A stretch of 34,476 nucleotides of DNA from a virus. Taxonomy: Duplodnaviria > Heunggongvirae > Uroviricota > Caudoviricetes. The notes under the pieces were generated by a model. That model was not told the DNA's origin. It searched no databases and saw only the letters and a list, made by a program, of their open reading frames with translations. Made by a program: the position numbers and the translations under genes. The stretch lies in IMG/VR virus record IMGVR_UViG_2698536573_000006, one strand, 5' to 3'. Of the stretch, positions 1-34,476 are shown in pieces (position 1 is the first letter of the stretch; the number at the start of each line of letters is the position of its first letter).

Positions 1-1005
1 TTAATCCCCCGTGGACACTGCGTGGACACTTACGCCACCTTTCAGCGGATTAAGGGCCACCGCATCCTGCAGGTAATCCGGTGCAAAATGCGCATATGCC
101 ATTGTTTGCTGAATGGTTGCGTGACCAAGAATCTTCTGAAGCGCAATAATGTTTCCTCCGTTCATCACAAAATGGCTGGCGAACGTATGCCGCAGCACAT
201 GTGCAGCCTGGCCTTTTGGTAAATCGGGCTTAACTCTTTTCAGCGCCAGGCAGAATTCCCGGTACTTCACCTCAAACAAGCCGCCTGTTTCTCTGGTTTT
301 GATCGCCTCACAAACTGCCTGCGAAATTGGCACTGTTCTCTTCCGGCCATTTTTGGTTTCAAGAAACGTTACACGGTTATGAACTATCTGTTCACCACGA
401 AGCTTACAAGCTTCACTCCAGCGCGCCCCTGTGCTTAAACACAAAAGCGCAACACGCCAGTAGTCGCCCTCCAGTGTATCGAGCAATAGCGCCACTTCCT
501 TCTGTGACAGGAACGCCATTTCTCGTGGAGATACATAAAGAATAGAAATTCCCCTTACTGGATGTTCTGCATCCCAAAGACCTATTTTTTTCAGCACGGT
601 AAACATTCCGGATAACCGATTCATGTACCTGTTAGCAGATGACGGTTTCAATCCTTCAGCTATCTTTTGAGAACGCCACGCGATAATTTTCAGCTTATCA
701 AGATCCACAGCCTGCATATCAGCGCCAAGCTCATTGATTATGTTGCGCAGTTGTTTTCGGTCTTCTTCCGCCTTACGCCTGTGCTGGCCGTGATACATCC
801 ACCACAACTCAAGCAAATCATTTAGCGTTCGACGATCACGGTAGCCCTGTATATATTCCCGCTTTTCAGCGTTCGCCATGATGTAGCGTTCAGTGGCCAC
901 CGCTACCGATTTTTTGTCAAATACCTTACGCACGCGCTTTCCCTTGCGTCCGTTCGGCCTGATGTCCAGCAAATAACGACCATCTTCGAGCTTCTTAATC
1001 GACAT
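1..1005 (-). CDS. int: tyrosine integrase, P2 Int family
   Basis: ORF 1..1020; translation from MSIKKLEDGRYLLDIRPNGRKG to HAVSTGD aligns along its length with my recollection of P2 Int (ARWSEA, HVLRHTFASHF, LGH, YAHFAPDYLQDA motifs). Start chosen at ATG 1005, which follows a GGAGGG Shine-Dalgarno. Confidence 0.9.
   Translation of the reverse strand: MSIKKLEDGRYLLDIRPNGRKGKRVRKVFDKKSVAVATERYIMANAEKREYIQGYRDRRTLNDLLELWWMYHGQHRRKAEEDRKQLRNIINELGADMQAVDLDKLKIIAWRSQKIAEGLKPSSANRYMNRLSGMFTVLKKIGLWDAEHPVRGISILYVSPREMAFLSQKEVALLLDTLEGDYWRVALLCLSTGARWSEACKLRGEQIVHNRVTFLETKNGRKRTVPISQAVCEAIKTRETGGLFEVKYREFCLALKRVKPDLPKGQAAHVLRHTFASHFVMNGGNIIALQKILGHATIQQTMAYAHFAPDYLQDAVALNPLKGGVSVHAVSTGD
11..28. repeat. 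putative attL core (direct repeat with 33296-33313)
   Basis: gtggAcactgcgtggaca here versus gtggTcactgcgtggaca at 33296-33313, with a 13-nt exact core cactgcgtggaca. It lies in the last codons of int, as expected for a P2-type attP core at the int 3' end. Confidence 0.45.
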
Positions 1006-1101
1006 TACGAAGCCCTCCAATGAACCGCTCTACAATTTCTCCAGCCTCTTTCCAGCAATAATCAGACCAGACAAAAAGCAGGTCTAACCAGTTTTCTGGC
1101 C

Positions 1102-1422
1102 TCAGCGGGATAATTTTTGGATTGTTTCGGTTGAAACGCGATCTCCCTCCGAATTGCAGGAACCATCAAGAGAGAGAGCCGGAGAAATTTGCCCGACCTC
1201 CGGCATCGTTTCATCTGTTGATAACCAATAAGCATACTTCTTAAATTTAGGGTGTTTCGTAACCTTAAGTAAGGCACCCTCTGTTACTTGCTTCCCCCTC
1301 ACCTCATAGTTAGTTACCGTCCCATAAGGCAGCCCAACACAATCCGCAAACTCCTGGCGGGTCATACCTTCTGCTTCACGAATCAGGCGAAATTTTTCAC
1401 CCATGCTTGACAAAGATGCCAT
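1102..1422 (-). CDS. immunity repressor, P2 C-like HTH protein
   Basis: About 106 aa with an HTH segment MTRQEFADCVGLPYGTVTNYE and a C-terminal GQISPAL motif resembling P2 C. Divergent from cox. Start at ATG 1422 chosen for the GGAGGA upstream; alternative starts up to 1476 exist. Confidence 0.75.
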   Translation of the reverse strand: MASLSSMGEKFRLIREAEGMTRQEFADCVGLPYGTVTNYEVRGKQVTEGALLKVTKHPKFKKYAYWLSTDETMPEVGQISPALSLDGSCNSEGDRVSTETIQKLSR

Positions 1423-1535
1423 ATCGGGCATATCCTCCATCGCAACATGCCACATCGGGCACAAACATAAAAACACTCAAATAAGCCGATATAAGCCATT
1501 TTGAGCCATTCGAACGAATTAGGGAGATTACCACA
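1423..1535. promoter_or_regulatory. putative divergent early/repressor promoter-operator region (Pe/Pc analogue)
   Basis: Intergenic region between divergent C-like and cox-like genes. Contains direct repeats agccatt...agccatt about one helical turn apart (taagccattttgagccattcg). Promoter elements not mapped. Confidence 0.4.
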
Positions 1536-1823
1536 ATGAGCGAATCAGAGCTTGAGGGGTTCATTCAGGTAGCACCATATCCACTTGAAGCGGTGCCATA
1601 TCAACTATTTGCCAAGATGATTGGTCGCAAAGAATCAACCGTCAGAACCATGATTGACGCTGCAAAGTTACCAACGATTGACTTTGTGAAACCAGGTTCA
1701 GTGAAGACGCGTGCATCAGAAAACTGGGTATATCTGCCAGCATTTAACGAAGGCATGCGCAAAGCGTTTTTTGAGCAACCGAAAGAACGCCGCGACGCAT
1801 GGTTGTTGTGGCTGGGACTTTAG
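1536..1823 (+). CDS. cox: Cox-like excisionase / transcriptional regulator
   Basis: 95 aa; VPYQLFAKMIGRKESTVRTMID and WVYLPAFNEG...RDAWLLWLGL match P2 Cox motifs as I recall them. AGGGAG Shine-Dalgarno upstream of the ATG. Confidence 0.8.
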   Translation: MSESELEGFIQVAPYPLEAVPYQLFAKMIGRKESTVRTMIDAAKLPTIDFVKPGSVKTRASENWVYLPAFNEGMRKAFFEQPKERRDAWLLWLGL

Positions 1824-1829
1824 TCATAA

Positions 1830-2036
1830 ATGACCAGCCATATCATCAGCGCCATTCTGACCCTTGTTTTTATTGAGATAGGCGTAATAGAGATCTATTT
1901 GTTTCGCAAGTTAACGGGACATGAAGAACGCTTTATTGAACTCAGCATTGAATATATCGCCGCTTATACCAAAGGACTTTTCCCGGCAGCTATTGGGGCG
2001 ATGTTTATAGCGTTTGTTATCTGGTTTATCGGGTGA
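1830..2036 (+). CDS. small hydrophobic membrane protein (early region)
   Basis: 68-aa ORF with two hydrophobic segments, immediately downstream of cox. Confidence 0.5.
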   Translation: MTSHIISAILTLVFIEIGVIEIYLFRKLTGHEERFIELSIEYIAAYTKGLFPAAIGAMFIAFVIWFIG

Positions 2037-2288
2037 GAAACCTGACAACCCACAACTACTGCAATGAGGGTAATTATGTGTGGCATGGACAAATTGGACC
2101 TTATGTTAATTGTAATACTATCAATTAACTTCGGTTACCTCTTAAGCGGCGCAATTCTCATGTGCGGAGGCAAACGAAAATGAACCAGCAGTCCGCAAAA
2201 CGTGAAAACAATGCGATACGATTTAATCGCAAATATTTTGAGTTCGGCCTCTATGCCGGAATAATTAAATCTGTACAGAGTCTTTAAC

Positions 2289-2630
2289 ATGAAACAGCAA
2301 CGTAATTCACGCTTTCGCAATGGTGCAGAACGCCACGCTAACCGTTTTGCTACCAGTGCATCACGCAGCAACATCCGCTACAGCCTGAGTGATACACACG
2401 CAACGCCGGATGGCTACCCAGTAAAACAAATCGGCGAGCATGCCTGGCTGATTGAGAAAGCTGGAATCGTGATCCACAAATGCCCACGCAATCCGTTTAC
2501 CGGAAACCGCATTTTTGCTCTAAGCAGTGGCGACAATCAGTTCGGGCAGGATTTCACATTATACGAAGCACTTCGCACGGTTGATCGTCTGCTTCGCGGG
2601 CAAAGTTTTATTAAACAGGCTGATTTATAA
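2289..2630 (+). CDS. hypothetical early protein
   Basis: 113-aa ORF in the early operon; basic N-terminus; no family recognised. Confidence 0.55.
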   Translation: MKQQRNSRFRNGAERHANRFATSASRSNIRYSLSDTHATPDGYPVKQIGEHAWLIEKAGIVIHKCPRNPFTGNRIFALSSGDNQFGQDFTLYEALRTVDRLLRGQSFIKQADL

Positions 2631-2640
2631 CAGGTGCTTT

Positions 2641-2928
2641 ATGACCAAAGACCATGCACAAGGTGTATTTATCCGTTTTATTGATTTTCGCGGTGAACTG
2701 TTATTACGTGCATCCGCTATTGACGGAGTGACTCCGGCGGGTAAAAACGGAGCCGACGAAGCCACTTACGTTCATCTGAACGGCACGCGACTGCTTGTGG
2801 AACTTCCGTACCAGACCGTACGAGAAATCATTAGCGAAGCTGAAAAGGCACGCCAGGTTAATGGCGATGAACCCTATATCGAAATTATTTGTATGGATTC
2901 AGAAGCTGAAATACAGAAAGCAGATTAA
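2641..2928 (+). CDS. hypothetical early protein
   Basis: ORF 2527..2928; start set at ATG 2641 (MTKDHAQG), just after the preceding gene's stop. Confidence 0.55.
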   Translation: MTKDHAQGVFIRFIDFRGELLLRASAIDGVTPAGKNGADEATYVHLNGTRLLVELPYQTVREIISEAEKARQVNGDEPYIEIICMDSEAEIQKAD

Positions 2929-2939
2929 AGGGCGTTGTG

Positions 2940-3182
2940 ATGGGCAAAGAATATAAAACTCTCATTAACAAAGCACTTGAGCGTTTTTATTTTCGCTTAA
3001 GTGCATCAGGCGCTCATGCTGAACGTGCGGCCCGTGACTCATTGACCAGAGCAATCCGAAGTCTGTATGACGTGGCTTTTTACGCTGATGATCTGGATGC
3101 ACTTAACGAACTTTCCGAGCTGATCTGTGCCGCAGAATGCGGGGAACATATTGAACCGTATAAGCTGGGGAATATCGCATGA
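2940..3182 (+). CDS. hypothetical early protein
   Basis: 80-aa ORF; its stop overlaps the ATG of a following 37-aa hydrophobic ORF (3179-3292) in an ATGA arrangement. Confidence 0.5.
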   Translation: MGKEYKTLINKALERFYFRLSASGAHAERAARDSLTRAIRSLYDVAFYADDLDALNELSELICAAECGEHIEPYKLGNIA

Positions 3183-5816: not shown

Positions 5817-6047
5817 ATGGCAAACCGCAAACCACACCGCGCTATCGCGGAGCGTCGTCACATCCAGACTGAAATCAACCGCAGGCTTTCCCGCGCATCA
5901 CGCGTCGCGCAAATCATGCACATCAATATGTTGCATGAGCGCAGCCACGCACTATCAAACATTTATTCCGCCTCTGTTTTCAGCTATCTGGCGGATGATC
6001 TGCACGAGCTTCAACAGCTCATCCAGCAGCAAAACAAACTCCATTAA
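5817..6047 (+). CDS. hypothetical small protein
   Basis: 76-aa ORF with an AAGGGG Shine-Dalgarno 8 nt upstream of the ATG. Confidence 0.5.
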   Translation: MANRKPHRAIAERRHIQTEINRRLSRASRVAQIMHINMLHERSHALSNIYSASVFSYLADDLHELQQLIQQQNKLH

Positions 6048-6119
6048 TTCCTGTTCCGGGCCTTTCCTGCACCTTGCGGCGGGAGGCCTTCGCACATCTG
6101 TAACAAGAGGATTGCCGCA

Positions 6120-6485
6120 ATGATTCTCGCCAACGACTTTCTTGAATACCTGCTCAACACAGAGCGTGATCTTGCCGCTCGCGTGCGTGATCGTTATGAC
6201 ATGTACCTGAAATCCCTGCCTGTACCGCAGCTCGCTGACGGAAAGATTGTTATTGATGGTCGCTACATGATTGACAGCCACGAGGGAAATTACAGGCTTT
6301 ACCGCATTGAAGGTGGCACCCCGTCCGTTATTGGCATTTACCAGCGCCCATCCTCTGCAATCGTCGATGTGATTGCCGACAGCATCCGCATCACACATCG
6401 CCATGCCGACACAGAAGACACCGTGCTGGAAATTCAGCGGCTGGCTACAGTCTGCCGCGACACCCTGAATGGCATGACGAAGTAA
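6120..6485 (+). CDS. hypothetical protein upstream of A
   Basis: 121-aa ORF with an AAGAGGA Shine-Dalgarno, immediately preceding the replication gene. Confidence 0.6.
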   Translation: MILANDFLEYLLNTERDLAARVRDRYDMYLKSLPVPQLADGKIVIDGRYMIDSHEGNYRLYRIEGGTPSVIGIYQRPSSAIVDVIADSIRITHRHADTEDTVLEIQRLATVCRDTLNGMTK

Positions 6486-6491
6486 ATCACT

Positions 6492-9239
6492 ATGACGGCA
6501 GAGTACATCAGGGACTGGCAACAACCGCGCCACGCAGTGGGGCGTGAAGGAACGGGGATCCCCGCTCCTGAATCCGCGCTTTCCTCCTGGCTGGATGCCT
6601 ACCGGGCAGAGAACGAGCGCCGCCAGGAAATGGCTGATGCGGCGTTCTCCGCCACGCCGCTGGGCAACCTGATTAATAAAAGCCTGGACGCACAGGAAAA
6701 ACAGGACAAAACCATCACACTGGCAGGAGACGCCAGAAAGCAGGCACGCGGCGCGGTGGATGAAGCCATGGCCTCGCTGCGCCTGCTGCCGTCCTATCTG
6801 CGCGATCCGCTTATTCGCCACCTCTCCTTCCTGCGCAAAAAACAGGAATCTGACCGCCAGAAAGGTAAAAAGAACCAGCAGGCTGAACGCTACGCGCGCG
6901 GGACCCTGCGCAAAATATTCGAACGTCTGGACCGCACCGACCACCGCTGGCTGACACCGGGTTATCGCGCCCTTGCCGGACGCGAACGCCTGGATGATTT
7001 GCTTTACCTCCCGCAGCTCAACAAGCACCAGATACAGACGCTGGCCACCATGACGGCGGCGATGTTCAGCAGCACCTTCGAAAAACTCTGCGATGGCTTT
7101 GGCGCAACCGATGGCGAGCTGACCATGGATGTAACCCTGAAGGCGTATCAGATGCTGGCCCGCATGGCGTTACACCTGCACGCCATGCCTCCACATTATG
7201 ACGCACTGACAACAGACAAAGACCGGAGGAACGAACCGGACACGGAGCTGCTGCCGGGCGCAATCCTTCGCCTGACCTGTGCGGAATGGTGGAAACGCAA
7301 ACTGTGGCTGTTACGTTGCGAGTGGAGAGAAGAACAACTCCGCGCCGCCTGTCTGGTTTCCAGAAAAACATCGCCCTATCTGAGCCAGGACGCGTTAAGC
7401 GAGTTTCGCGCACAGCGCGAGAAGACACGCGATTTCCTGAAAAGTTTCATGCTGGAAAACGAAGACGGGTTCACGATTGATCTCGAGACAGTGTATTACG
7501 CGGGAGTAAGTAACCCGGTTCACCGTAAGGCAGAAATGATGGCCACCATGAAGGGACTGGAACTTCTGGCCGAAGCCCGTGGCGACAGAGCGGTGTTTCT
7601 GACTGTCACCTGCCCGTCAAAATACCACGCCACAACAGAGAACGGTCATCCGAATCCCAAATGGAACGGGGCCACCATGCGCGACTCCAGCGATTACCTG
7701 GTTAACACGTTTTTTGCGGCTGTCCGCAAAAAACTGAACCGCGACGGTCTGCGCTGGTATGGCATCCGCACGGTGGAGCCTCACCATGACGGCACCGTGC
7801 ACTGGCATATGATGGTCTTTGCTCATCCGGAAGAAATCGACACCATTGTGTCCCACACCCGCGATATTGCCATTCAGGAAGACCGCCACGAGCTGGGCGA
7901 TGACATAACTCCGCGCTTTAAGGCGGAGTACGTCGACGGCTCAAAAGGCACACCAACCAGCTACATCGCCACCTACATCGGAAAGAACCTGGACAGCCAC
8001 GCCGTGGATGGCATCGACCCGAAAACGGGCAAGCCACGCGTTGACCACGAAACCGGAAAATCAATGGCCGAGAGCGTGGAGCGCGCCATCGGCTGGGCGC
8101 GCCTTCACCGGGTCCGCCAGTTCCAGTTCTTTGGCATCCCCTCCCGTCAGGTGTGGCGTGAACTGCGCCGCCTTGCCAGCCAGATGGCACGCAACCCGGA
8201 AGGCCCGCAACGACTGAAGGACGACGCAATGGATGCGGTACTCGCTGCCGCTGATGCCGGGTGTTTTGCCTCCTACATTGAAAAACAGGGTGGCGTACTT
8301 GTTCCACGCAAAGACTACCTGATTCGCACCGCCTACGACCTCGCCGATGAGCTGAACGATTACGGCGAACAGAGCGTACAGATTTACGGGATCTGGTCAC
8401 CACTCATCGGGGAATCCTCCCGTGTGTGCACGCATCCGGATAACTGGAAGCTGGTAAGACGTAAACCGGAAGCGGAAGACAGCGCCCGCGAAAATGGTTT
8501 TGACCTTCAGGGCGGCTCTGCCGCCCCTTGGACTCGTGGCAATAACTGTCCCCGTGTACAGGAAACGGACAACAACGGGACAGAACAGCCGGAGGAACGG
8601 CCAGCACCGTGGCCGCAGCTTCCTGAAGGCGTTGACGTGAATGAATGGATGCGCTCACTGAAACGGCACGAACGCCGGGCACTGATGCGTTCGCTGCGTG
8701 ACAAACAGGCAAAAAACAGCAGTGATGAAATGCAGAACTGGACACAGAGCCGCAAACAGCCACAGCCTTTGCCTGATAACCACGAGTTACTCGCTAAAGA
8801 ATGGCGGGAGTCTGCTGAATCTCTCGGCCTGCATATCGGTGAACAGCAGATGCAGCACCTGTTACGGGGCGGCAGTCTGTACGTTGGCGGCAGCATCATT
8901 ACACCGCAGGGATTTGAAATTGTACGCAAACCGGATACCCGCCCGGACAGCCGAATCACGCAGCTCTGGCAACGCCTGAGTCGTAATCACGGCGTAAGCA
9001 GCACGGAGATCCGCCATAACCCGGTCGCCAGCTATCTGGAACAACTAGAGGCATCAGACCCTGAAGCCGCCGCACGCCTGGCATCCACACTTCAGCAAGA
9101 CCAGAACACCATGAAAACACCAGTTACCGTACTTTCTGACATGCTGCGCGCCATCCGCGACGCAGAGCACGCACAGAGAATCAATGAAACCACTAAACAT
9201 GCTCGCAAAAAAATCAGTTTATTGCATCGAACACGATAG
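6492..9239 (+). CDS. A: replication initiation endonuclease, P2 gpA family (rolling circle)
   Basis: 915 aa; the central region (HHDGTVHWHMMVFAH ... TSYIATYIGKNLD ... WARLHRVRQFQFFGIP) matches the conserved P2 A nickase core as I recall it. Confidence 0.9.
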   Translation: MTAEYIRDWQQPRHAVGREGTGIPAPESALSSWLDAYRAENERRQEMADAAFSATPLGNLINKSLDAQEKQDKTITLAGDARKQARGAVDEAMASLRLLPSYLRDPLIRHLSFLRKKQESDRQKGKKNQQAERYARGTLRKIFERLDRTDHRWLTPGYRALAGRERLDDLLYLPQLNKHQIQTLATMTAAMFSSTFEKLCDGFGATDGELTMDVTLKAYQMLARMALHLHAMPPHYDALTTDKDRRNEPDTELLPGAILRLTCAEWWKRKLWLLRCEWREEQLRAACLVSRKTSPYLSQDALSEFRAQREKTRDFLKSFMLENEDGFTIDLETVYYAGVSNPVHRKAEMMATMKGLELLAEARGDRAVFLTVTCPSKYHATTENGHPNPKWNGATMRDSSDYLVNTFFAAVRKKLNRDGLRWYGIRTVEPHHDGTVHWHMMVFAHPEEIDTIVSHTRDIAIQEDRHELGDDITPRFKAEYVDGSKGTPTSYIATYIGKNLDSHAVDGIDPKTGKPRVDHETGKSMAESVERAIGWARLHRVRQFQFFGIPSRQVWRELRRLASQMARNPEGPQRLKDDAMDAVLAAADAGCFASYIEKQGGVLVPRKDYLIRTAYDLADELNDYGEQSVQIYGIWSPLIGESSRVCTHPDNWKLVRRKPEAEDSARENGFDLQGGSAAPWTRGNNCPRVQETDNNGTEQPEERPAPWPQLPEGVDVNEWMRSLKRHERRALMRSLRDKQAKNSSDEMQNWTQSRKQPQPLPDNHELLAKEWRESAESLGLHIGEQQMQHLLRGGSLYVGGSIITPQGFEIVRKPDTRPDSRITQLWQRLSRNHGVSSTEIRHNPVASYLEQLEASDPEAAARLASTLQQDQNTMKTPVTVLSDMLRAIRDAEHAQRINETTKHARKKISLLHRTR

Positions 9240-21202: not shown

Positions 21203-21330
21203 GCGCAGAACTCATGCGACTGCTGAGCAACATCATCCGCACCGGGATCATCTCTGAAGTTGATGAGAAGTCCTGGTGCGTGCGCGTTCGCAGCGGCGAA
21301 CTGGAAACAGGCTGGTTAACACCATGGTGA
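21199..21330 (+). pseudogene. V: remnant of baseplate spike gene V (first ~43 codons only)
   Basis: Translation [43 protein letters not shown] matches the P2 V N-terminus (LRNMIRTGIIVETD...RCRVQTGG...DWLQW) then stops; the rest of V is absent. Confidence 0.6.
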
Positions 21331-23015
21331 TGGCCACAGTGGATTACGTGGATAACAAACTGAAAGAGCATGAACAGTCACGACGTCACCCGGATGCCTC
21401 GCTGACCGCAAAAGGCTTTGTTCAACTCAGTAGCGCCACTAACAGCGTGTCTGAAACACAAGCTGCAACGCCGAAAGCAGTAAAGGCCGCGTATGACCTT
21501 GCTAACGGGAAATATACTGCGCAGGATGCCAGCACAACGCGAAAAGGCCTTGTCCAGCTCAGTAGCGCCACCAACAGCGATTCTGAAACGCTGGCGGCAA
21601 CACCAAAGGCGGTAAAGGCAGCATATGACCTTGCTAACGGGAAATATACCGCACAGGACGCTACCACAGCGCGAAAAGGTCTTATCCAGCTCAGCAGTGC
21701 GACTAACAGCACTTCCGAGTCACTGGCGGCAACGCCAAAAGCCGTTAAGGCCGCGTATGAGCTGGCTAACGGGAAATACACCGCACAGGATGCAACGACA
21801 GCACAGAAAGGGATAGTTCAGCTTAGCAACGCGACCAACAGCACATCTGAAACGCTGGCGGCAACGCCAAAGGCGGTAAAGGCAGCATATGACCTTGCTA
21901 ACGGGAAATATACCGCACAGGACGCTACCACAGCGCGAAAAGGTCTTGTCCAGCTCAGTAGTGCAACCAACAGCACGTCTGAAACGCTTGCCGCGACCCC
22001 GAAAGCGGTTAAAGCTGCTAATGACAATGCAAACGGGCGTGTGCCCTCTGGACGTAAGGTTAATGGCAAACCACTGACCAATGATGTCAATGTTACATCA
22101 CAGGATATTTTTAACGGTCAGAGTATTAATATTGGTGCAAACCAGAATCTGGATAATTACAAAACGCCGGGGCTGTACCATCAACCCCTGAATGCCTATA
22201 CAAGTGCAGCGCTGAAATACCCAGAGAATCTTGCCGGTACACTGGTTGTGCTTAAAAATGCCGGGATAACACAGATTTACTATGTGTATAACACATCCAG
22301 AAGCTATACCCGCAGCCAGTACTCAACGGGTGACTGGACAGCATGGACGCCGCAGGATTCATTTCCTGTAGGTGCGGCGATTCCGTGGCCTTCTGATTCA
22401 GTGCCTACAGGCTATGCCGTTATGCAGGGGCAGACTTTTGATAAAACAACCTATCCCCTGCTTGCAGCAGCTTATCCCTCTGGTGTACTCCCCGATATGC
22501 GTGGCTGGACAATCAAGGGCAAACCCGCCAGTGGTCGGGACGTATTGTCTCTGGAACAGGATGGCATTAAATCGCACACCCACAGCGCCAGCGCATCCAA
22601 TACGGATTTGGGTACGAAAACCACATCTTCGTTTGATTACGGTACTAAATCAACGAATAACACAGGTGCACATACCCACAATGTATCTGGTACTGCAAAT
22701 AGTGCTGGCGCACATACTCATACCGTGCCATTAAGGAGACCAAACAGTGGCGGTATGAATTTCGACTGGCTGGATGGTGCATCAAGTGGCACGGTGGTAG
22801 GGAATGGAACTGTGCCTTCTTCTGGCGCACATACCCACTCAGTATCAGGCACCGCTACAAGTGCTGGGGCACATGCACACACTGTTGGTATTGGCGCTCA
22901 TACGCACTCTGTTGCGATTGGTTCACATGGACATACCATCACCGTTAACGCTGCTGGTAACGCGGAAAACACCGTTAAAAACATCGCATTTAATTATATT
23001 GTGAGGCTTGCATAA
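21324..23015 (+). CDS. H: tail fibre protein (P2 gpH-like), lacking the baseplate-proximal N-terminal domain
   Basis: From ATG 21324: [32 protein letters not shown] corresponds to an internal segment of P2 H ([33 protein letters not shown]). Followed by tandem repeats and a C-terminal GAHTH-repeat tip. Confidence 0.8.
21411..22040 (+). repeat. tandem 132-bp coding repeats (about 4.7 copies) inside the tail fibre gene
   Basis: Repeated 44-aa unit [44 protein letters not shown]; the nucleotide copies are near-identical. Confidence 0.8.
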
Positions 23016-23632
23016 TGGCATTCAGAATGAGTGAACAATCACGCACTGTAAAAATTTATAACCTGCTGGCCGGAACTAATGAGTTTATTGGTGAAGGTGA
23101 CGCATATATTCCACCTCATACAGGGCTGCCAGCTAATTCTACAGATATCGCCCCACCGGAAATTCCTGCTGGCTTTGTGGCAGTTTTTAACAGTGAAAAT
23201 GAATCGTGGAATATTGTTGAAGACCATCGTGGTAAAACGGTCTATGACGTGGCATCGGGGGACGCGTTGTTTATTTCTGAACCCGGACCGCTACCAGAGA
23301 ATGTCACCTGGTTGTCGCCAGCAGGGGAATATCAGAAGTGGGACGGCGTATCCTGGGTGAAGGATGAGGAAGCAGAAAAACTGTTTCGGATACGGGAAGC
23401 GGAAGAGAAAAAGGCAAGGTTGATCCAGGAGGCAACAGATAACATCGCAATCCTGCAGGATGCAGTTAATCTTGAAATAGCAACAAACGAGGAAAATTCA
23501 CAACTGGATTCCTGGAGAAAATACAGAGTATTAGTGAGTAGAATTGACACCAGTACAGCTCCGGATATCGTATGGCCAGAGCTGATGAATCAGGGTTATG
23601 TGCGGGAGGACGAGCAGATAACTTCAGACTGA
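23015..23632 (+). CDS. G: tail fibre assembly protein (gpG-like)
   Basis: 205 aa; its ATG overlaps the H stop; N-terminal region typical of Tfa chaperones. Confidence 0.75.
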
Positions 23633-24159
23633 AATTTAGTGATGAATGTTGAATCATCAGGAATATCATGCAATACCAATGCATGAGCACCTATTGTGAC
23701 ATTGTTTCCTATACGCACTTTGCCACCAAGAATGGTGGCATTACAACCAATGGTCACATTATGTCCTATAACAATATCCATATCATTAAAATCACCACGT
23801 AGCCCAATAGTTACCCCCGGTTTTATTGAACAATTTTCACCGATTGTTACTTTGTGACCGATAACAACACTGTTGAGATAAGAAATATCAAAACCTTTCC
23901 CTATATTTACAGTTAAAGGGACTGTTACATTATATTTATCAAGAATGAAACGTTCTATTTTCCCCGCAATCTTCCGACAGTATCCGCCTTTATCAAAAAG
24001 GTATTTGGCTATGCGCCACCAAAATAAATAACGAAGTCTTCTATGTTTTATTGCGCGAACAATTGCCTTTCGCCAGGAGAAAGGACGCTCGCTACCGATT
24101 ACTTCATAGTGAATACAGTCTTTAAGTTCATTAATATTCATATCTCTATTATTCAGCAT
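23596..24159 (-). CDS. hexapeptide-repeat (left-handed beta-helix) acetyltransferase, cargo at the Z/fun position
   Basis: 187 aa with repeated [LIV]GxxxxIG hexapeptide units ([45 protein letters not shown]); AT-rich; convergent with G and overlapping its 3' end. Confidence 0.7.
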
Positions 24160-30062: not shown

Positions 30063-31172
30063 ATGACCGACACCACCATGCAATTGCTCAGTCAGGGCAC
30101 AGACCCCGTAAAAATGCCGGATTTTGATATTCTCGCGGAGGGTAAAACGCTGTCAGGCGTGGCAGAGCGCCTGATGAGCCTGTCACTGACCGACAACCGG
30201 GGATTTGAGGCGGACCAGCTCACCATCACGCTGGATGATGCGGATGGTCAGTTGCAGCTACCGCCACGGGGCGCGCGCCTGACGGTTCTCATTGGCTGGA
30301 AGGGAGAACCGCTGACAGAAAAAGGCACTTACATTGTTGATGAAATCGCTCACGAAGGACCGCCGGACAGGCTGACTGTTTCAGCCAGAAGCGCAGATTT
30401 TCGGGATGAATTTAACGTTAAACGTGAGGTGTCCTGGCATGATGTGACCGTTGAGCGTGTGGTATCCGCCATCGCTCATCGGTATGGTCTGAAACCGCAA
30501 ATCAGCGAAATGCTGATGGATATCGAAATCGACCACGCCGACCAGACCGAAGAAAGCGACATGTCCTTCCTTACGCGCATGGCGGAAATGCTGGGTGCAA
30601 TCACCACGGTAAAAAGCGGCAATCTGTTATTCATCATGCCAGGTGGTGGCGTGAACGCACAGGGCCAGCCGTTGCCCTCGTTCGCCATTACACGCAGCAG
30701 CGGCGATCGCCATCAGTTCCGCATTGCTGACCGCGAGGCGTATACGGGGGTACGCGCCTACTGGCTTGATCTTAATTACGGGAAAAAGAAAAAAGTCAGC
30801 GTGAAACGCCGTAAACCGCCAAAACCCAAAAAGGAGAAAAGCAGCAGCCGTGAAGGTGATTATATGGAAGGCGCGGAAGGCAATGTGTTTGTGTTACGCA
30901 AGACTTATCAGAACGAGCAGGCAGCAAGACGCGCAGCGGCGGCAAAGTGGCAGCAACTACAACGCGGAGCCGCATCATTCTCCATCACGCTGGCGCGTGG
31001 ACGTGCAGAACTCTACCCCGAAATGCATGGCACGTTAACAGGATTTAAAAGCGAGATTGATAATCAGGACTGGATTATTGCAAAAGCCGGGCACACCATT
31101 GATAACAGCGGCTTTACCACGCAGCTTGAGCTTGAGGCAAAAATCCCGGAATGGATAGCGGAAACAGAGTGA
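30063..31172 (+). CDS. D: tail protein D (late control gene D family)
   Basis: ORF 29931..31172; start at ATG 30063 after GGGAGGGA. DNRGFEADQLT, SARSADFR, NSGFTTQLELE and a KR-rich insert match P2 D. Confidence 0.9.
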   Translation: MTDTTMQLLSQGTDPVKMPDFDILAEGKTLSGVAERLMSLSLTDNRGFEADQLTITLDDADGQLQLPPRGARLTVLIGWKGEPLTEKGTYIVDEIAHEGPPDRLTVSARSADFRDEFNVKREVSWHDVTVERVVSAIAHRYGLKPQISEMLMDIEIDHADQTEESDMSFLTRMAEMLGAITTVKSGNLLFIMPGGGVNAQGQPLPSFAITRSSGDRHQFRIADREAYTGVRAYWLDLNYGKKKKVSVKRRKPPKPKKEKSSSREGDYMEGAEGNVFVLRKTYQNEQAARRAAAAKWQQLQRGAASFSITLARGRAELYPEMHGTLTGFKSEIDNQDWIIAKAGHTIDNSGFTTQLELEAKIPEWIAETE

Positions 31173-31214
31173 GCAACTTAGAATAGCGGCAGCACCACGT
31201 TAAGGGAGGTAGCT

Positions 31215-31475
31215 ATGTTCCGTTGTCCGCTTTGTGGCGCATCTGCCCGTATCCGCACCAGTCGTCCGGAAAATGATTCAAACACCGTGCGGCAAAAGTA
31301 TTACCAGTGTAACAATCTGGAATGCGGCGTATGCTTCTCAACACTGGAAGCTTTCCATAAATTCACATCGAAACACGCCTCCGGCGTTCACTCATCAGAA
31401 GGTATCCCGTGGCATGAGCTGCCAGCTTCACACAGGGGAAACAATCAGATGAGTTTGCCTTTACCTCAGAATTAA
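31215..31475 (+). CDS. ogr: late gene activator Ogr (zinc finger)
   Basis: MFRCPLCGASARIRTSR...YYQCNNLECGVCF matches the P2 Ogr Cys4 zinc-finger N-terminus (MFHCPLCQHAAHARTSR...YHQCQNVNC); AGGGAGG Shine-Dalgarno. Confidence 0.8.
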   Translation: MFRCPLCGASARIRTSRPENDSNTVRQKYYQCNNLECGVCFSTLEAFHKFTSKHASGVHSSEGIPWHELPASHRGNNQMSLPLPQN

Positions 31476-31665
31476 CAGGCAGAATTGCCGGAGTAACAAA
31501 AAAGCGATAGATTACGTGCGGGTGCCTTTCGGCTGATGGTCGGAGGGAATACCCGAAGGCCGGATGTGGAAAGGCCCCGGAAAACATATCTGTTTAACCG
31601 AGGCCCTAACCGCATTACCTTGACAAGTGAAAGGTTAGCGCCTCTCCGGAAAAGGAGCAAGTGCT

Positions 31666-31806
31666 ATGTCGCAAAAATCGCTTACGGCCATCACGTTCTG
31701 CGTGACGGCAATCCTCATCATCTGGATGCTGCACGGTTCGCTGTGTGAAATACGGATGAGTTTCTGGGGAGCGGAGTTTGCGGCGTTCTTACAGTGTAAG
31801 CAGTAA
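31666..31806 (+). CDS. Hok/Gef-family type I toxin candidate
   Basis: 46-aa ORF MSQKSLTAITFCVTAILIIWMLHGSLCEIRMSFWGAEFAAFLQCKQ: one TM helix followed by SLCEIR and AAF motifs typical of Hok/HokA. AAAGGAG Shine-Dalgarno. An overlapping upstream frame (31536..31748) could be mok-like. Confidence 0.6.
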   Translation: MSQKSLTAITFCVTAILIIWMLHGSLCEIRMSFWGAEFAAFLQCKQ

Positions 31807-31983
31807 GGAAACCGCGACGGGGGAGCAATCCCCCGTCAATCAGTTGCCAGAGTAAGGTCGATAAGGCATCCTGTCTCACTCTATACCAGCTAATCAATTG
31901 ACACATATCAATAAAAAGTCTGATAAAATCAAAATGTTTTGTTACAAACGTCAGCTAGTAGAGAGCCAAAGGAGGCAGATTAT

Positions 31984-32316
31984 ATGGCATTAATCAAATG
32001 TCCTGAATGCCAGAAAGAGGTGATCGATTCAGTATTGTCTTGCCCTGCTTGTGGCAAACAACTGAAAAAACTTAAACGTTCATTTTTTGGAGAACTCATT
32101 AAGTATTTTTTCATATTATTTAATATTTTTATAATCTACACGATTTGTGTTGGGCTAAGAGAGGTGGGTGAAATAATAAACAACGCCACATCCGATGCCG
32201 AAAAAGCCGGTACAGTTATTGGTACGGGCTTAGGTTTAATTGCTATTGGAGGCTTATGGGTTATTTGCAATATCATTATCGGAAATTTAGTATTTCTTAC
32301 TAAACCAAAGGGATAA
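31984..32316 (+). CDS. zinc-ribbon membrane protein (cargo)
   Basis: ORF 31939..32316; start at ATG 31984 after AGGAGG. N-terminal CPECQ...CPACGK zinc ribbon followed by two TM helices; AT-rich. Confidence 0.55.
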   Translation: MALIKCPECQKEVIDSVLSCPACGKQLKKLKRSFFGELIKYFFILFNIFIIYTICVGLREVGEIINNATSDAEKAGTVIGTGLGLIAIGGLWVICNIIIGNLVFLTKPKG

Positions 32317-32320
32317 CAAA

Positions 32321-33231
32321 ATGAAAAATATGATTATTTCTATAGGTGCATCATTTATATCAATTAGTGTGCTACCTGCTCACGCAGCAACTGAGCATAA
32401 TAACTTTAAGTCATCACTCCAGTGCCGAGCAATAGAAAATAATAAAGAAAGACTTTCTTGTTATGATAAGTCAATACAACCGACTCGAACGACAGTTGCT
32501 GAAAAATTCGAAAGCAGAGATCAATGCCCTGATGAGAAAGATGATGACAGACGTTTATCTTGTTATGACCGTTTTTTTCTCCAACATTTACTCCGCCTGT
32601 AAGCTCAAAATCTAAAGCGAAACAGCTAGTAACAACAGAGGCTCAGCAACCAAATCTTTCTGAGATATCTAAATGCCGAGCAGAAAACGATAAAGAAACT
32701 AGAGTAAACTGCTACGATAAACCATTTCCACAGGAAAAAGTTGCGCAATCTAAATCAAAATTAGAGAAAGCCACAGACACAGGAAAATGGCACACATCCA
32801 TTACTACATCGCCAATTGATGATTCGAAAAATGTAATTTTATCGTTAGAAAGTGATGATTATATAAGAACTCCATTTGGAGAAGCGGTTACCCCTACTCT
32901 GTTTATAGCTTGCCGAGAAAAGAAAACCGAAGTATTTCTTAATTGGGATGTATATTTAGGCCTTGAACAAACCAGCATGCTGTATCGCCTTGATAAACAG
33001 AAAGCAGTTGAGCGAAACTGGCTAGTATCTACAGATACAAAGGCTGTTTTTTATAAAGGCAATGACATTAACTTCATCAGAAAACTAGCCAACTCAAACA
33101 AAATGTATGCAAAAATAACCCCTTATAATGAAAGCCCTGTAAGTGCAACTTTCAATTTAAACGGCCTGTCAACCACGCTAAAACCGCTTCAAGAAGCCTG
33201 TAACTGGAAACAGTATAAATCATGCGGCTAA
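32321..33231 (+). pseudogene. secreted protein with repeated RLxCYD(K/R) Cys motifs, reading frame broken at a T7 tract
   Basis: ORF 32321..32602 (signal peptide MKNMIISIGASFISISVLPAHA; motifs RLSCYDKS, RLSCYDRFF) stops shortly after the T7 run at 32572-32578. The -1 frame is open from 32569 to 33231 and continues the same motif (RVNCYDKPF). One extra T or a -1 slip would give a continuous protein of about 300 aa. Confidence 0.5.
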
Positions 33232-33247
33232 GCCACAATCACAGATA

Positions 33248-33275
33248 ACACAAAGCCCGTGAAAACGGGCTTTGT
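33248..33275 (+). terminator. putative terminator hairpin after the right-end cargo
   Basis: acaaagcccg / tgaaaa / cgggctttgt forms a 10-bp stem followed by a T-rich stretch (gttatct); the U tract is weak. Confidence 0.35.
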
Positions 33276-33295
33276 GTTATCTATAACTCGAAAAT

Positions 33296-33313
33296 GTGGT
33301 CACTGCGTGGACA
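33296..33313. repeat. putative attR core (direct repeat with 11-28)
   Basis: gtggtcactgcgtggaca shares 17 of 18 positions with 11-28; lies between ogr-side cargo and the first host-like gene. Confidence 0.45.
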
Positions 33314-33480
33314 TGCGCCGATACAAATCCTTTTATATCAAAAAGTTAAATCAACATCTTTTTCATCAACAAGGATTTTCACGTTTGTGTTACCTGTATG
33401 AGACGAGAGTTAACCGGACAAGTGTGCCATAATCTCGCGGCCAGGCATACTTGCGAAGATTTCAGGTATAAGGATACGTA

Positions 33481-34476
33481 ATGATACAACCTATTTCCGG
33501 CCCTCCTCCTGGGCAACCACCAGGTCAGGGAGATAATCTGCCGTCTGGCACGGGCAATCAGCCTTTATCCAGTCAGCAACGTACTTCGCTGGAAAGCTTA
33601 ATGACGAAAGTGACCTCACTGACGCAACAGCAAAGAGCAGAACTGTGGGCGGGTATCAGGCACGATATTGGTCTGTCGGGAGATTCACCGCTGCTTTCGC
33701 GTCACTTCCCTGCCGCTGAGCATAATCTGGCGCAACGTCTGCTGGCCGCGCAAAAAAGCCATTCTGCCCGCCAGCTTTTAGCGCAATTAGGGGAGTATTT
33801 ACGTCTGGGGAATAATCGTCAGGCGGTCACGGATTATATCCGTCATAACTTTGGTCAGACGCCGCTGAATCAGCTCTCACCGGAGCAATTAAAAACCATT
33901 CTCACCCTGTTGCAGGAAGGGAAGATGGTTATTCCGCAACCACAGCAGCGCGAGGCGACCGACCGTCCTTTATTACCGGCGGAGCACAATGCGCTAAAAC
34001 AGCTGGTGACCAAACTTGCGGCGGCAACGGGGGAACCCAGCAAACAGATCTGGCAATCGATGCTGGAACTTTCCGGGGTGAAAGATGGCGAGTTAATTCC
34101 AGCGAAACTGTTTAACCATCTGGTGACCTGGCTACAGGCGCGTCAGACGCTAAGCCAGCAAAATACGCCGACGCTGGAATCACTACAGATGACGCTAAAA
34201 CAACCTTTAGATGCCAGTGAACTGGCGGCGTTATCGGCATATATCCAGCAAAAATATGGTCTTTCTGCGCAATCATCGCTTTCTTCTGCCCAGGCCGAGG
34301 ATATTCTTAATCAGCTTTATCAACGGCGGGTTAAAGGGATTGATCCGCGTGTTATGCAACCGCTGCTTAATCCTTTTCCACCGATGATGGACACGTTGCA
34401 AAATATGGCAACGCGTCCCGCGCTGTGGATACTGTTAGTCGCGATTATCCTGATGCTGGTCTGGCTGGTTCGTTAA
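33481..34476 (+). CDS. host-like tail-anchored membrane protein, function unknown
   Basis: 331 aa; Pro/Gly/Gln-rich N-terminus and a single C-terminal TM helix (ALWILLVAIILMLVWLVR); outside the proposed attR and not phage-like. Confidence 0.7.
   Translation: MIQPISGPPPGQPPGQGDNLPSGTGNQPLSSQQRTSLESLMTKVTSLTQQQRAELWAGIRHDIGLSGDSPLLSRHFPAAEHNLAQRLLAAQKSHSARQLLAQLGEYLRLGNNRQAVTDYIRHNFGQTPLNQLSPEQLKTILTLLQEGKMVIPQPQQREATDRPLLPAEHNALKQLVTKLAAATGEPSKQIWQSMLELSGVKDGELIPAKLFNHLVTWLQARQTLSQQNTPTLESLQMTLKQPLDASELAALSAYIQQKYGLSAQSSLSSAQAEDILNQLYQRRVKGIDPRVMQPLLNPFPPMMDTLQNMATRPALWILLVAIILMLVWLVR

Follow-up and report, generated by a model that had tools for sequence, protein, structure and literature searches.

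A probably inactivated VasI-domain cargo gene with a one-nucleotide deletion in a T tract at the flk end of a P2-like prophage of Escherichia coli

The DNA analysed here, called the window, is a stretch of 34,476 nt from an E. coli chromosome which comprises essentially one whole P2-like prophage and the start of flk. It is 100% identical to genomes of enterotoxigenic E. coli (ETEC) of serotypes O6:H16 and O166:H15. With the Peduoviridae phages PhiR44_2 and 500465-2 the prophage shares about 96% identity across 76% of its length, and judged by its sequence it is a P2-like, P88/Xuanwuvirus-like member of the Peduoviridae integrated next to flk in ETEC. An 18-nt direct repeat, identical at 17 of 18 positions, occurs at 11-28 and again 33,285 nt further on at the probable attR, which places the gene studied here inside the prophage. 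It is the last gene there, the order being gpD, ogr, hok, a zinc-ribbon gene, the split gene, attR and flk (Table 1). The GC content of the cargo block at 31900-33240 is 36% versus 51% for the whole window, as is typical of a horizontally acquired moron, and the split gene is probably cotranscribed with the zinc-ribbon membrane protein gene in front of it. Between ogr and these cargo genes an open reading frame for a toxin of the Hok/Gef family is found at 31666-31806. A scan of 31100-33600 at Rfam gathering thresholds found no family, Sok or hok RNA included. The hairpin behind the split gene was not called by a consensus promoter and terminator scan, which was otherwise uninformative.

Table 1. 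Features of the split gene and its surroundings, in positions of the window
Feature	Position	Strand	Description
Partner gene, 110 aa	31984..32316	+	N-terminal zinc ribbon, hydrophobic C-terminal part; 4 nt lie between its end and the ATG at 32321; present in all loci examined
Upstream remnant	32321..32602	+	93 codons, ATG at 32321, stop (TAA) at 32600-32602; predicted signal peptide, two C-x9-10-RLxCYD motifs, 7 out-of-frame residues LQHLLRL; RefSeq "hypothetical protein" WP_223351500.1
Rest of the gene in the -1 frame	32569..33231	+	Linker, third CYD motif, VasI domain; TAA at 33229-33231
T7 tract	32572..32578	+	Site of a 1-nt deletion from an ancestral T8; in phase as T_TTT_TTT (CG-T TTT TTT CTC)
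Junction peptide of the frame-restored protein			(R)FFSPTFTPPVSSK
VasI (PF11319) domain	32671..33207	+	Residues 118-296 of the repaired protein; IalB-like beta fold
CAG where every intact allele has the TAG stop	33211..33213	+	Second lesion; the frame runs 6 codons further to the TAA at 33229-33231
Hairpin directly 3' of the gene	33250..33275	+	acaaagcccg-tgaaaa-cgggctttgt; by eye; possible terminator
Probable attR core	33296..33313	.	GTGGTCACTGCGTGGACA; repeats 11-28, the probable attL

The original prediction had described a gene interrupted at a run of seven T, with a -1 frame open behind it and CYD motifs on both sides, and all of this, coordinates included, was confirmed on the sequence. 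By eye, MKNMIISIGASFISISVLPAHA/ATEH at the N-terminus resembles a signal peptide of the Sec type. Upstream of the shift are found RLSCYDKS and RLSCYDRFF, and downstream of it RVNCYDKPF. Around the tract the zero frame reads GAC CGT TTT TTT CTC CAA CAT TTA CTC CGC CTG TAA, and a -1 shift at the T7 would yield the wild-type junction RFFSPTF. A or T runs of at least 7 nt occur about 20 times in the window and the T7 run alone is not unusual. Chance would not explain the end-to-end alignment of the two halves with a single orthologous coding sequence, which bears out the claim that they are one gene. The further claim that one extra T would restore a protein of about 300 aa holds as far as restoration is concerned, a continuous protein of 303 aa being obtained. 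The intact length has to be corrected to 297 aa, the difference arising because the natural stop has also been lost in the window (TAG to CAG).

The gene is carried by 237 of 5,426 complete E. coli genomes, and at all chromosomal loci inspected it was found at the same site. Intact alleles consist of a single coding sequence of 297 aa ending in ...ACNWK-TAG. Their tract is either T8, with RFFS encoded as CGT TTT TTT TCT, or a synonymous TTTCTTTT, the latter in many E. coli and Citrobacter alleles. The peptide RFFSP is kept across orthologues and the homopolymer is not, the codons being AGA TTT TTC TCG (T5) in Klebsiella phages and CGT TTC TTT TCT in Citrobacter and other E. coli alleles. Among intact alleles dN/dS was 0.09-0.35 overall, 0.06-0.37 in the N-terminal part, and 0.05-0.19 in the VasI domain. 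Both halves of the intact alleles are thus under purifying selection, and the two parts therefore form one functional gene elsewhere. The orthologue comparison proposed with the original prediction hence yielded intact single-frame genes at the same locus and not two independent ones. Infectious phages also carry the gene as one coding sequence, and in P88_4B11 the same gene pair adjoins the integrase.

The possibility that the downstream half is a gene of its own was rejected for the same reason and for a second one: ATG, GTG, and TTG are absent from the -1 frame across 32569-32976, about 400 nt. In the identical genomes RefSeq (PGAP) nevertheless lists this half as a separate 188-aa "TagO" coding sequence from an ATA at 32665 with no Shine-Dalgarno sequence, which is an artefact of homology-guided calling. 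By the frameshift the VasI domain, which itself has neither a canonical start codon nor a signal peptide, is thus cut off from the signal peptide and from motifs one and two. The secreted 93-aa remnant could keep some activity.

Residues 118-296 of the repaired protein match the Pfam VasI model (PF11319) with an E value of 1.7e-23 and 83.7 bits against a gathering cut-off of 26.5 bits, and the whole VasI domain therefore lies downstream of the frameshift. The protein also matches phrog_1848 (E 6e-37). Homologues in Enterobacterales exist in versions with one, two, and three motifs. In the AlphaFold model the C-terminal domain is predicted with confidence (pLDDT near 90 at residues 155-297), and the only significant PDB match of the modelled VasI domain in a Foldseek search was Bartonella henselae IalB (3DTD; E 3e-6, TM about 0.63 on the target). 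A sequence-profile search of the PDB gave no match, IalB having come from the fold search alone, and one family member also matches PF06776, the family of IalB. Sequence identity to IalB is only about 15% and IalB lacks the N-terminal CYD repeats. The intact product would accordingly be a Sec-exported periplasmic protein of 297 aa with three Cys-x9-10-RLxCYD motifs followed by a VasI/TagO domain of IalB-like fold, export and disulfide bonds being deduced from these features.

With the VasI/TagO proteins proper (PF11319, TIGR03360; V. cholerae VC_A0118, Aeromonas, and the TagO of Pseudomonas H4) the protein shares a predicted N-terminal signal peptide, a C...RLxCYD motif at the start of the domain, and a C-terminal pair of cysteines, besides the RefSeq name TagO. 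In contrast to them, the repaired protein falls short of the cut-off of the TIGR03360 VasI equivalog (71.8 versus 124.2 bits), has three CYD motifs versus one in the shorter relatives, and has its gene in a P2-like prophage where type VI secretion (T6SS) genes are not found nearby. At the loci inspected the gene does not belong to a T6SS cluster; it stands between P2-type ogr/hok and the attR by flk, and its neighbours are phage tail genes. The function of TagO/VasI is listed as unknown in a 2026 review (PMC13584744). The PADLOC defence models matched neither of the two cargo proteins.

Close relatives are the phrog_1848 morons which P2-like phages (PhiR44_2, 500465-2, Shae_phiSM, P88_4B11, and Klebsiella 3LV2017) carry at the ogr-att end, in the same position and behind the same zinc-ribbon gene. 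The copies in E. coli phages are 88-90% identical in protein sequence to the repaired protein. Unlike the copy in the window, with its 1-nt deletion and lost stop, these phage copies are intact. A paralogue of 250 aa with two motifs lies near tamB at the ogr-proximal end of a different P2-like prophage, where it is paired with a TM2-domain protein (6001-7126 of that locus). P2-like prophages repeatedly carry VasI-like cargo at the ogr-att end, always paired with a small membrane protein and with no T6SS genes nearby. The point worth keeping from these comparisons is that VasI/TagO-like secreted proteins are a recurrent cargo of P2 phages which is unrelated to any T6SS locus.

The distribution of tract lengths was determined by a census based on exact matches to probes of 76-78 nt, by which T7 or T9 alleles with an additional mismatch in the flank could be missed; in the group of window-type alleles it gave T7 in 41 records (32 chromosomes and nine ETEC plasmids) and T8 in five. 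The loss of the stop (TAG to CAG) is linked to T7 in 40 of the 41, and no window-type record was found which combines the CAG marker with T8, so that there are no revertants among them. The deletion is thus fixed in this lineage. The remaining T7 record, RIVM_C019217, has kept the TAG and has a different background of single-nucleotide polymorphisms, and its T7 is for these reasons regarded as a separate event. The one plasmid locus that was inspected is a prophage remnant in which part of gpD is followed by ogr and hok and then by the zinc-ribbon gene and the split gene.

Of the 191 genomes with an allele of the second group, four have T7 (H1, 504211, Z1323HEC0462, and DEC5A), and T9 was looked for in both groups without being found. 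There is no difference between the alleles of H1 and 504211, and Z1323HEC0462 differs from both at 40 sites. DEC5A shares with FDAARGOS_946 an independent frameshift at codon 5 (T6 to T5) and has also lost a T from the T8, this second loss having occurred in an already dead allele because the first one is shared. Besides the window type, T7 thus occurs on no fewer than three allele backgrounds, in one case in a dead allele, though some of the singleton T7 alleles may be homopolymer errors of long reads, which would make the independent events fewer. Its appearance in the dead DEC5A allele fits mutation bias rather than selection. From this distribution the tract is a hotspot of recurrent, one-way deletion, in line with the exponential climb of insertion and deletion rates with run length (PMC8510543).

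Further changes are seen in the T7 lineage. A leucine beside the third CYD motif is replaced by proline only in the window-type chromosomal copy, all other alleles having leucine, and a plasmid copy has tyrosine for cysteine in the first CYD motif. Together with the lost stop these are additional lesions, in a number too small for statistics. Compared with the nearest intact allele the T7 lineage has three nonsynonymous and no synonymous changes, too few for relaxed selection to be tested by dN/dS.

A frameshift pseudogene is expected to have intact single-frame orthologues at its locus, a stop soon after the lesion, and a downstream part that lacks a start of its own, and all three are seen here. 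It is therefore with good confidence that the gene is regarded as a recently inactivated lysogenic-conversion (moron) gene, a fixed pseudogene that arose by an ordinary slipped-strand deletion and not a programmed switch. The original prediction had left three options open, and it is its recent pseudogene that is favoured by a T7 uniform across the lineage and by decay elsewhere in the gene, the very combination which that prediction had put forward as speaking against its reading. In the course of events suggested here, replication slippage would have deleted one T from the T8 of the RFFS codons. Translation now runs into a premature stop eight codons after the deletion, and the VasI/IalB-like domain is left with neither signal peptide nor start codon, with presumable loss of function. 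The allele has become fixed and has spread with the prophage and on plasmids, and decay seems to have begun with the loss of the stop and the missense changes. Spontaneous -1 slippage on U_UUU_UUU would rebuild the exact wild-type sequence, at a level of roughly per mille and not as a programmed event. Similar cases are the homopolymer-slippage pseudogenes with adventitious restoration of the frame, such as the G-run mutants of herpes simplex virus thymidine kinase and the poly(A) genes of Buchnera, in which a 1-nt insertion or deletion also leaves a run that can rarely slip back. They differ from the present case in that the run in the window has only 7 nt and the gene is a dispensable cargo.

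The spread of the T7 allele over several host backgrounds and plasmids could also reflect selection for the inactive state instead of neutrality. The T8 would then be a slow and mostly one-way OFF switch under selection, loss of the periplasmic VasI/IalB-like protein being advantageous in some hosts such as ETEC. Such a switch would explain the at least four OFF origins, the spread by lysogeny, and the capture on ETEC plasmids, and slippage on U_UUU_UUU at the per-mille level would keep a trace of the full-length protein. It is considered improbable.

About as improbable is phase variation proper, in which the tract would act as a slipped-strand contingency switch that reversibly alternates between T8 (ON) and T7 (OFF) and so varies a periplasmic protein encoded by the prophage. 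An 8-nt run of A or T is short for switching at high frequency in E. coli proficient in mismatch repair. It is true that T7 arose on four or more allele backgrounds, that about 45 of 238 copies are in the OFF state, that a T8 run is a known hotspot for insertions and deletions (PMC8510543), and that UUUUUUU is avoided in E. coli genes, being under-represented in all frames (PMC4066793). Reversibility is what the data speak against: the 40 CAG-marked copies, from several host lineages and nine plasmids, all have T7 with no revertant, the other T7 alleles are singletons or pairs, and T9 did not turn up, so that no reversible variation of tract length was seen among close isolates. Neither is the homopolymer conserved in orthologues, where synonymous interruptions are common and Klebsiella has a T5, and T7 also arose in the allele that was already dead. 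The claim of phase variation was given up on the unconserved tract, the missing revertants, and the absence of T9.

Programmed recoding, either -1 ribosomal frameshifting on T_TTT_TTT or transcriptional slippage, would make a short and a full-length product by design. The tract is indeed a slippery heptamer of the X_XXY_YYZ type exactly in zero-frame phase, the shift would give the wild-type RFFSPTF, and in E. coli a stimulator makes H_HH.U_UU.Y motifs efficient (PMC4066793). No such stimulator was detected here. Sequences of 89 and 171 nt that span and follow the site showed no better folding than their shuffled counterparts (z = -0.06 and -0.83), and a Shine-Dalgarno-like sequence resembling GGAG or AGGA is absent within 20 nt upstream of the tract. 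A motif with no stimulator gives only about 0.1-0.5% frameshifting, U_UU.U_UU.U in E. coli just over 0.10% versus a background of 0.055%, with ratios of motif to no motif of 2-10 (PMC4066793). For efficient transcriptional slippage some 9 A or T in a row are needed, in keeping with the hybrid of 9-10 bp (PMC5009743), or else a shorter run aided by a structure, whereas the run here is 7 nt with no adjacent structure. From the weak unstimulated slip site, the lack of stimulators, and a run below 9 it follows that any restoration would be adventitious and in the per-mille range. In addition the two-frame arrangement occurs only in the young T7 lineage, all orthologues outside it being single-frame, and T7 is derived from T8. 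A programmed -1 shift, as the original prediction had offered, is on these grounds very unlikely in spite of the heptamer in phase.

Least likely of all is a homopolymer undercall during sequencing or assembly of the window; long-read assemblies often drop homopolymer bases and DEC5A shows two such deletions in one gene, but the identical T7 allele in 41 agreeing records from many unrelated projects, 40 of them linked to the same stop-loss polymorphism, rules this out as the cause of the missing T.

To return to the inactivated moron gene, its lesion is of an ordinary kind and already annotated, sibling alleles with the same lesion being marked "frameshifted" by RefSeq. In the genomes identical to the window RefSeq gives neither half a pseudogene flag, and the two RefSeq coding sequences in these ETEC genomes should become one pseudogene. 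The finding carries little biological weight, being a homopolymer frameshift of a routine kind in a prophage cargo gene that is dispensable.

Some further observations concern annotation at related loci and other genes of the window. The GenBank record of Citrobacter phage Shae_phiSM gives the label "tagO" to the zinc-ribbon gene (1164-1496 of the locus) and calls the product of the true VasI-domain gene a "hypothetical protein", which looks like an annotation slip. In strain 94-3024 the neighbouring flk is flagged "frameshifted" (6162-7156 of the locus). The tail-fibre open reading frame of the prophage (21276-23015) contains five tandem repeats of 44 aa with a period of 132 nt at 21410-22069 and repeated GAHTH motifs near its C-terminus (22665-22885). 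It is followed by an open reading frame at 23015-23632, the 3' end of which is overlapped by one on the opposite, minus strand (23596-24159) encoding 187 aa with hexapeptide repeats, acyltransferase-like, which may be another cargo gene for lysogenic conversion.
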